The notes beneath the pieces are model-generated. The model had not been told where the DNA came from and made no database searches. It saw only the letters and a list, made by a program, of their open reading frames with translations. The translations under genes were made by a program, and so were the position numbers. 64,000 nt of DNA from Escherichia coli (lineage in GTDB: Bacteria > Pseudomonadota > Gammaproteobacteria > Enterobacterales > Enterobacteriaceae), in NCBI RefSeq assembly GCF_003790525.1, contig NZ_CP033635.1. One strand, 5' to 3'. This document shows positions 34,399 to 34,665 of the stretch, in pieces. Within the stretch, counting starts at the first letter, position 1. Each line of letters opens with the position of its first letter.

Positions 34399-34402
<4 letters not shown>

Positions 34403-34665
34403 AAGAGTTTTTATTTTTATTTCACTCCACGGTCGGCGTCATACAAACCCGCAAGGCGTTGCAGGCAGCGGGCATGACTTTTCGCGTCAGCGATATTCCC
34501 CGTGATTTACGCGGCGGCTGCGGGTTATGCATTTGGCTGACCTGTCCCCCCGGCGAGGAAATACAATGGGTGATCCCTGGGCAGACCGAAGCGATATATT
34601 GCCAGCAGGGCAGCGACTGGCAGTGCGTGGTGCATTACGATTCAGAAGCGTCAACCAGGCAATAA
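34399..34665 (+). CDS. Small Cys-containing hypothetical protein translationally coupled to yjiL
   Basis: 88-aa ORF whose ATG overlaps the yjiL stop (ATGA); conserved-looking Cys residues (CGLCIWLTCPPGEE). Confidence 0.45.

Follow-up and report, generated by a model that had tools for sequence, protein, structure and literature searches.

TusA and YedF (PF01206) are small single-domain alpha/beta proteins in which one essential cysteine relays sulfane sulfur. In TusA, this residue belongs to a Cys-Pro-x-Pro motif where helix 1 begins. Proteins of the DUF3343 family (PF11823), whose genes occur in the same neighbourhoods as those of TusA/YedF, were proposed by Lin et al. in 2015 to be selenium/sulfur (Se/S) trafficking chaperones, the neighbours behind the proposed selenium role being YedF, selenocysteine (Sec) lyase and SelD (PMC5322559). 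The STRING table of that study for Slackia lists an activase and an HGD-D subunit among the DUF3343 partners, without comment (PMC5322559). Double-cubane reductases, described in 2018, are represented by the system of Carboxydothermus hydrogenoformans (PDB 6ENO, 7YYL; Jeoung and Dobbek), which has two components, the reductase DCCP and the ATPase DCCP-R, encoded by adjacent genes. Their Escherichia coli counterparts, YjiM and YjiL, are likewise encoded side by side, but here, as in about 15% of the distant operons sampled below, a DUF3343 gene is added. This gene, ytiA, is the subject of the present analysis. It occupies positions 34399–34665 of a 64,000-nucleotide stretch of E. coli DNA (contig NZ_CP033635.1), which is called the window throughout. 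The reference annotation is that of strain SMS-3-5 (NC_010498.1), of which the window is the reverse complement at 100% identity.

The evidence described below identifies ytiA as a real protein-coding gene and as the last cistron of a yjiM-yjiL-ytiA operon. With regard to function, the reading slightly favoured here is that its product would be a sulfur/selenium relay protein based on Cys41 and serving YjiM/YjiL. The features on which the argument draws are the following.

34399–34665, plus strand: ytiA allele of SMS-3-5 with an ATG start, 88 amino acids (aa), from the list of open reading frames (ORFs); RefSeq WP_000657678.1
34399–34402, plus strand: ATGA start/stop overlap of yjiL and ytiA (ytiA ATG at 34399–34401, yjiL TGA at 34400–34402)
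34387–34391, plus strand: GAGGA, a Shine–Dalgarno-like sequence within the 3′-terminal part of yjiL, at a spacing of 7 nt from the ytiA start codon, as read from the letters
32474–33625, plus strand: yjiM, double-cubane-cluster ([8Fe-9S]) anaerobic reductase, class II DCCP (RefSeq coding sequence, NF040772, Pfam HGD-D, match to PDB 6ENO)
33635–34402, plus strand: yjiL, ATP-dependent activase/reductase partner of YjiM, DCCP-R type (RefSeq coding sequence, TIGR00241, Pfam BcrAD_BadFG)
34408–34575, plus strand: Pfam PF11823 (Se_S_carrier, formerly DUF3343) domain, residues 4–59 (hmmscan E = 3.6e-13)
34519–34530, plus strand: C41-G-L-C44 motif, from an alignment of 53 diverse homologues

A sequence-only reading of the window had singled out a small Cys-containing ORF that starts on the ATGA overlap with the yjiL stop, directly before an AT-rich islet. 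Its coordinates, the overlap and the drop in G+C content (0.52–0.55 over ytiA, 0.31–0.34 from about 34700 onward) are all confirmed, and five cysteines (residues 41, 44, 49, 68 and 76) are read from the translation. The belief that this is not a named gene in K-12 is wrong, since ytiA is annotated in both RefSeq and UniProt. The allele of K-12 MG1655 is ytiA, with 85 aa (YTIA_ECOLI, ‘Uncharacterized protein YtiA’), while RefSeq calls the SMS-3-5 protein a ‘DUF3343 domain-containing protein’ and other RefSeq records label the product ‘putative Se/S carrier protein’. In other words, the gene, its family and a tentative role are already known from databases and one paper. In the literature, the name ytiA mostly denotes the Bacillus subtilis-type paralogue of ribosomal protein L31 and its homologues in other bacteria; one AlphaFold interaction screen mentions E. 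coli YtiA in passing, and a literature search on PF11823 or ‘Se S carrier’ found nothing relevant.

The openness of 88 codons is not compelling by itself, as the chance probability of such a frame at the local composition is about 0.02 per frame. What places ytiA beyond chance is its match to PF11823, the retention of its reading frame in 11/11 genomes compared, and the predominance of synonymous changes. YtiA scores 49.2 bits against PF11823, about twice the gathering cutoff of 25, and aligns to profile positions 2–57 of 69. Moreover, a word-indexed search returned 133 relatives with 48–100% identity to the query (56–99% for full-length homologues), and all matches with a named source belong to the Enterobacteriaceae, namely Escherichia, Citrobacter, Klebsiella, Raoultella, Kosakonia, Phytobacter and Atlantibacter. 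Among complete E. coli genomes, blastn finds ytiA in 5385 of 5426.

Nei–Gojobori rates were calculated for yjiM, yjiL and ytiA as they occur in five strains of E. coli, in four further genera and in a distant organism of low G+C. Over whole genes, omega (the ratio of nonsynonymous to synonymous rates) is 0.09–0.43 for ytiA, 0.05–0.24 for yjiL and 0.03–0.095 for yjiM, with a ytiA synonymous rate (dS) of 1–2.6 between genera. Codons 1–47 of ytiA differ between genera by pN 0.10–0.21 against pS 0.49–0.74 (proportions of nonsynonymous and synonymous differences, respectively), and codons 48 to the end by pN 0.32–0.56 against pS 0.63–0.90. Within E. coli, five of the six variable sites in codons 1–61 are third positions. 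The frame is conserved, and the synonymous-site pattern whose absence would have spoken against a real gene is present. Judged by these rates, ytiA is under purifying selection.

These data also bear on the explanation that ytiA might be no functional gene at all but a frame left open by chance or a remnant in decay, which is scarcely credible. The chance probability of 0.02 is not negligible, and conservation of the C-terminal third of the frame is poor, with differences from one E. coli lineage to another. However, the PF11823 match lies well above its cutoff, omega stays below 1 at saturated dS, the frame and its start/stop overlap are conserved across genera, and the predicted fold is a confident one. 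As a spurious ORF, the candidate is ruled out by the conservation data.

The position of ytiA in its operon is equally stable. The ytiA start and the yjiL stop overlap in each of the ten operons compared, by 4 nt in nine of them (ATGA in eight, ATGATGA at the low-GC locus L003) and by 1 nt (TGATG) in Phytobacter. In the nine enterobacterial operons, a purine-rich Shine–Dalgarno-like stretch lies at the same distance (GAGAA, GGAGG, GGGGA or GAGGG outside SMS-3-5), and L003 has only an A-rich AAAAGAA in this place. The overlap in ten of ten operons supports the translational coupling to yjiL that had been suggested from the letters. A promoter and terminator scan found neither a terminator nor a sigma-70-like plus-strand promoter between yjiL and ytiA, which fits co-transcription and is no proof of it; Rfam gives no RNA family within 31000–38500.

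Citrobacter amalonaticus, Klebsiella pneumoniae, Atlantibacter hermannii and Phytobacter share identical relative coordinates of yjiM, yjiL and ytiA, whereas the gene downstream of the trio is different in every genus and the upstream genes vary as well. Locus L003, with 32% G+C, has the trio too, its proteins being 81% (YjiM), 64% (YjiL) and 38% (YtiA) identical to those of E. coli. At L007, a distant ytiA homologue comes after a coding sequence with a YjiL-like C-terminus, which it overlaps by 4 nt. The trio and its overlap are kept in five further lineages, and the three genes move as one cassette, because spacing and overlap remain constant while flanking genes change, even at the distant low-GC locus.

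The identity of the two partners is well defined by profile scores. YjiM reaches 531 bits on NCBIfam NF040772 (cutoff 350) and matches the C. hydrogenoformans protein in PDB 6ENO with E = 5e-75, while YjiL reaches 364 bits on TIGR00241 (cutoff 125). As a candidate 2-hydroxyacyl-CoA dehydratase, YjiM is rejected with 95.7 bits for HadC (cutoff 700) and 21.5 bits for HadB (cutoff 750), against 531 for the double-cubane model. The label ‘dehydratase-like’, given to it from the sequence, is accordingly replaced by that of a double-cubane-cluster reductase, which fits better with NF040772 far above its cutoff and the dehydratase equivalogs far below theirs. This agrees with the review by Jeoung and Dobbek, in which YjiM is a class II double-cubane protein and YjiL its ATP-dependent reductase (PMC7317905). 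YjiM represents the shorter class II form, which, unlike the C. hydrogenoformans DCCP, lacks the channel-closing N-terminal helices and is described as able to take a larger substrate (PMC7317905).

YtiA itself is a member of DUF3343/PF11823 by profile score, by size and by the presence of the invariant cysteine. In a Pfam scan at E ≤ 0.1, PF11823 is its only match, with none to PF01206 (TusA/YedF) or to PII, and no NCBIfam model matches it. Its 88 aa fall within the size of stand-alone family members, given as 80–100 aa for DUF3343 (PMC5322559) and found to be 72–100 aa among the homologues collected here. Invariance across the 53 diverse members aligned is limited to F8, P34 and C41, with L21 and G42 coming close (Gly42 in 51/53); C44 is present in 33/53 and C49 in 15/53, all 15 of them enterobacterial. 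Within an alignment of Enterobacteriaceae, C41 and C44 occur in 20/20 sequences and C49 in 17/20. The candidate role of an iron–sulfur (Fe-S)-binding CxxC...C protein is down-weighted because Cys41 is the sole cysteine conserved beyond the Enterobacteriaceae.

The AlphaFold2 model of YtiA, built with the 53-member alignment, has a mean pLDDT (predicted local distance difference test) of 89.7 and a pTM (predicted template-modelling score) of 0.79. It consists of b1 (2–8), a1 (11–23), b2 (28–32), b3 (43–49), a2 (53–57), b4 (63–70) and b5 (73–79). A ferredoxin-like fold is confidently predicted, with Cys41 at the end of a long beta2–beta3 loop (residues 33–42), a location different from that of the TusA cysteine. 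A PDB sequence search with YtiA gave nothing significant (best E 0.05), and the family has no solved structure. Foldseek finds no match to the model at E ≤ 0.001; its best matches are the PII proteins GlnZ, GlnK and GlnB (E 0.015, TM about 0.5, probability up to 0.99). To PII (GlnB/GlnK), CutA, the UreE C-domain and DUF2179, YtiA shows likeness at the fold level only, with no sequence relationship and no nucleotide-binding motifs identified. As far as the model goes, the structural likeness to other proteins is generic ferredoxin-like only.

The fold could nevertheless be taken to mean that YtiA is a PII-like regulator, whose T-loop-like beta2–beta3 loop would gate the YjiL ATPase or electron transfer to YjiM. 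PII proteins do head the Foldseek results, and the conserved cysteine lies in the loop corresponding to the T-loop. This explanation is highly unlikely, however, as there is no sequence similarity to PII and the genomic associations of the family are with Se/S relay genes rather than with signalling.

The wider distribution of DUF3343 was examined by a profile scan of one genome per GTDB species. As a homologue search with YjiM had listed none but enterobacterial sequences (86–98% identity), the DCCP query alignment was headed by the C. hydrogenoformans protein, with its sequence rebuilt from a PDB alignment, and the best 80 loci were kept. These are 50–97% identical to that protein and come from Firmicutes, Deltaproteobacteria, Actinobacteria, Chloroflexi and Bathyarchaeota. 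Six-frame ORFs of the 80 loci, with flanks of up to 8 kb per side, were searched with a DUF3343 hidden Markov model built from 34 sequences. A DUF3343 ORF lies within the flanks of 18 of the 80 loci, and in 12 of these 18 it is directly inside or beside the DCCP/activase operon. By rough estimate, uniform placement in a 16-kb window would make only a few per cent immediately adjacent, far below 12 of 18.

Several gene orders occur. The arrangement DCCP–DUF3343–activase is found in Tepidibacter (four species), a Tissierellia metagenome-assembled genome (MAG), Lachnoclostridium, Dorea (two loci) and Mordavella, DCCP–activase–DUF3343 in one Firmicutes MAG, and DUF3343–DCCP–activase in one Actinomycetes MAG. 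In Clostridium ihumii, the DUF3343 ORF directly follows DCCP, and no activase was detected in the locus. Among the nine loci with a second, strongly YjiM-like DCCP, six have DUF3343. This operon link between DUF3343 and double-cubane reductases is visible in published tables, and no explicit discussion of it was found in the literature searched.

Some of these distant ORFs vary in form. In those of the Firmicutes DCCP operons (L027, L034, L036, L039, L047, L064, L070, L072 and L076), a Cys-Cys-Gly sequence (KCCGIS or CCGMS) replaces the enterobacterial G-C-G-L-C; Haft has drawn attention to adjacent Cys-Cys motifs in systems of selenium and organometallic chemistry. At L028 (5911–6456), a 181-aa ORF joins an N-terminal DUF3343-like domain to a C-terminal Cys-containing domain (GGGCPD...HTLCGY) and sits 3.5 kb upstream of a YjiM-like DCCP.

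Taken as a family, DUF3343 is a companion that recurs with double-cubane reductases in certain lineages and is optional rather than an obligate subunit, because 62 of the 80 loci are without it in the flanks available and the characterised enzyme works in vitro with its ATPase alone. This qualifies the suggestion that the small ORF encodes an accessory subunit of the YjiL/YjiM pair. The role of companion stands, as the trio is kept while its flanks differ, but ‘subunit’ overstates the case.

It is also conceivable that YtiA traffics sulfur or selenium independently of YjiM/YjiL and merely shares their operon, for example through anaerobic co-regulation. In many cases, DUF3343 genes have YedE, YedF or desulfurase genes as their neighbours but no DCCP gene, and the 62 loci lacking DUF3343 suit this idea too. 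It is quite unlikely all the same, since the overlap and the trio are kept through saturating synonymous divergence despite the turnover of the flanks, and since the family has been recruited repeatedly into DCCP/activase operons of distant lineages, in the orders reductase–activase–DUF3343, reductase–DUF3343–activase and DUF3343–reductase–activase.

The gene company of DUF3343 points to sulfur and selenium chemistry. Other DUF3343 homologues follow a YedE-like Sulf_transp gene with TusA in one case, TusA with a class-V aminotransferase (Aminotran_5) of the cysteine-desulfurase/selenocysteine-lyase type in another, and a TusA/DsrE fusion in a third. At L022 (Desulfosporosinus sp. BG, 7821–13593), the genes are DCCP, activase, Aminotran_5 (on the opposite strand), a SelD-like AIRS protein, a TusA/YedF-like protein, DUF3343 and an IscA-like protein. 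L064 (Lachnoclostridium sp. An118, 6510–12547) is a compact cluster in which a cysteine-desulfurase-like Aminotran_5 is followed by two DCCPs, the first class I-like and the second YjiM-like, with DUF3343 and activase between them, and by a rhodanese protein of 369 aa that may be SelU-like, judging from its length and domain. A neighbourhood of the YedF/Sec-lyase/SelD type, which not all members of the family have, occurs in the relatives L022, L064, L097 and L098. Additionally, according to the Haft preprint, 955 of the 970 NF040772 proteins above 400 bits come from SelD-containing genomes; DUF3343 goes unmentioned there. As separate observations, DUF3343 is placed at L016, L019 and L020 as it is at L022, 3.6–6.1 kb downstream of DCCP, and the two-DCCP arrangement of L064 recurs in Dorea and Mordavella (L070, L072, L076).

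On the favoured reading of YtiA as a Cys41-based relay protein, this small ferredoxin-like protein would work in a manner similar to TusA/YedF and carry a sulfane-sulfur or selenium species on Cys41, at the end of its exposed loop, as a persulfide or a selenosulfide. The donor to Cys41 could be an enzyme of the cysteine-desulfurase or selenocysteine-lyase type, or else a carrier of the TusA/YedF type. YtiA would then cooperate with YjiM, a double-cubane reductase of very low potential that is driven by ATP, and with YjiL, which supplies YjiM with electrons. In the most plausible case, the S/Se species bound to YtiA would be presented at the YjiM active site, to be released reductively or transferred, although the direction may also be the reverse, with YtiA either giving the species to the YjiM/YjiL system or taking it from there. 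The relatively open class II active site of YjiM would admit a protein loop of YtiA.

A more specific version, which is a rather long shot, holds that Cys41 carries the physiological substrate of YjiM or accepts its product, and that some class of DCCP acts on protein-bound S/Se. Such an enzyme might, for example, use ATP to free selenide or sulfide by reduction of a Cys-S-Se or Cys-S-S adduct and in this way supply SelD or cofactor synthesis.

The main competing explanation is that YtiA, instead of carrying a substrate, helps the metal clusters of YjiM/YjiL to mature. It might supply the extra bridging sulfide (speculatively selenide) of the [8Fe-9S] double cubane, or bind Fe-S transiently through C41, C44 and C49. 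The near-complete retention of these three cysteines in Enterobacteriaceae agrees with it, as do the IscA-like Fe-S biogenesis gene after DUF3343 in the Desulfosporosinus locus and the selenium-bridged cluster raised as a formal possibility in the Haft preprint; the sulfur-relay neighbourhood suits cluster assembly equally well as substrate delivery. On the other side, only C41 is conserved family-wide, and most DCCP loci have no DUF3343. Furthermore, the C. hydrogenoformans DCCP overproduced in E. coli formed brown Fe-S clusters without a cognate DUF3343, with host ytiA as a possible contributor (PMC7317905). On this evidence, a maturation role is rather unlikely.

Several observations weigh against the relay reading. 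In SMS-3-5, no YedE, YedF, SelD or desulfurase/Sec-lyase gene is annotated within 6 kb of ytiA, so that the E. coli gene is not beside the neighbours that prompted the selenium proposal. Given ATP and dithionite alone, and no third protein, the C. hydrogenoformans DCCP/DCCP-R pair is able to reduce acetylene in vitro (PMC7317905), and its close relative in C. islandicus, at 97% identity to the characterised DCCP, has no DUF3343 within 8 kb downstream. The 62 of 80 DCCP loci without DUF3343 refer to the available flanks, up to 8 kb on each side with many contigs short, and the adjacency counts are raw, uncorrected for the chance of finding DUF3343 near an arbitrary gene. The C-terminal third of ytiA evolves fast, with the pN of 0.32–0.56 given above. 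No ytiA match is found in 41 of the 5426 complete E. coli genomes by blastn, the gene is dispensable in some strains, and a prophage appears to have integrated at its 5′ end in at least one of them (L095). Finally, experimental work on YtiA or another DUF3343 protein was not found in the literature searched.

The 3′ end of the gene has a history of its own, in which two further features of the window take part.

34583–34665, plus strand: divergent 3′ segment of ytiA, codons 62–88, the left edge of a divergent haplotype block, from the alignment with K-12
34987–36960: espX6 counterpart in the AT-rich islet (about 35% G+C), encoding a 657-aa pentapeptide-repeat protein annotated in O157:H7 as type III effector EspX6

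The ytiA sequences of SMS-3-5 and K-12 are almost identical up to 34582 and diverge sharply thereafter. From codon 62 to the end, the comparison with K-12-type alleles gives pN 0.31 and pS 0.68, against a pS of about 0.03 in codons 1–61, so the divergence of the tail is of inter-genus level inside one species. The 85 aa of K-12 YtiA and the 88 aa of the SMS-3-5/O157 allele differ only in the last third. The divergent block (34583–39281) runs through the AT-rich islet into yjiK-yjiJ, where identity to K-12 is 81%, compared with 97% for the DNA upstream of the breakpoint. Judged from this alignment, ytiA contains a recombination breakpoint near codon 62. Since identity to K-12 breaks at 34582/34583 and the divergent block continues into the islet, the islet boundary lies inside ytiA, and the last 27 codons of the 88-aa allele came with the block. 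In K-12, the islet is absent and yjiK begins 64 bp after ytiA. Among the 5426 complete genomes, 637 have the espX6-like islet and 639 the 3′ end of the 88-aa allele, and the 90%-identity cluster of this allele includes an 87-aa protein of E. albertii.

Two further alleles were encountered. In E. coli STEC306 (L095, NZ_CP091016.1, 1–2717), prophage tail-fibre genes adjoin a DUF3343 coding sequence truncated to 71 aa, its start corresponding to ytiA codon 14; a second match lies elsewhere in this record. In E. coli 2013C-4830 (L094, 2600–2851), ytiA has an in-frame deletion of two codons in the first beta strand (MKE--FLFH) and encodes 83 aa.

As a gene call, ytiA is of no consequence, and its value is that of a lead, a modest one. 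The yjiM-yjiL-ytiA operon gathers three puzzles in one place, namely the natural substrate of double-cubane reductases, the role of DUF3343, and the co-occurrence of DCCP with SelD, and its three genes can be deleted, tagged and reconstituted. If Cys41 does carry the substrate or accept the product of YjiM, this would explain both the DUF3343–DCCP operons and the near-perfect DCCP–SelD co-occurrence, and it would provide the first natural substrate for the DCCP family, in a genetically tractable host.

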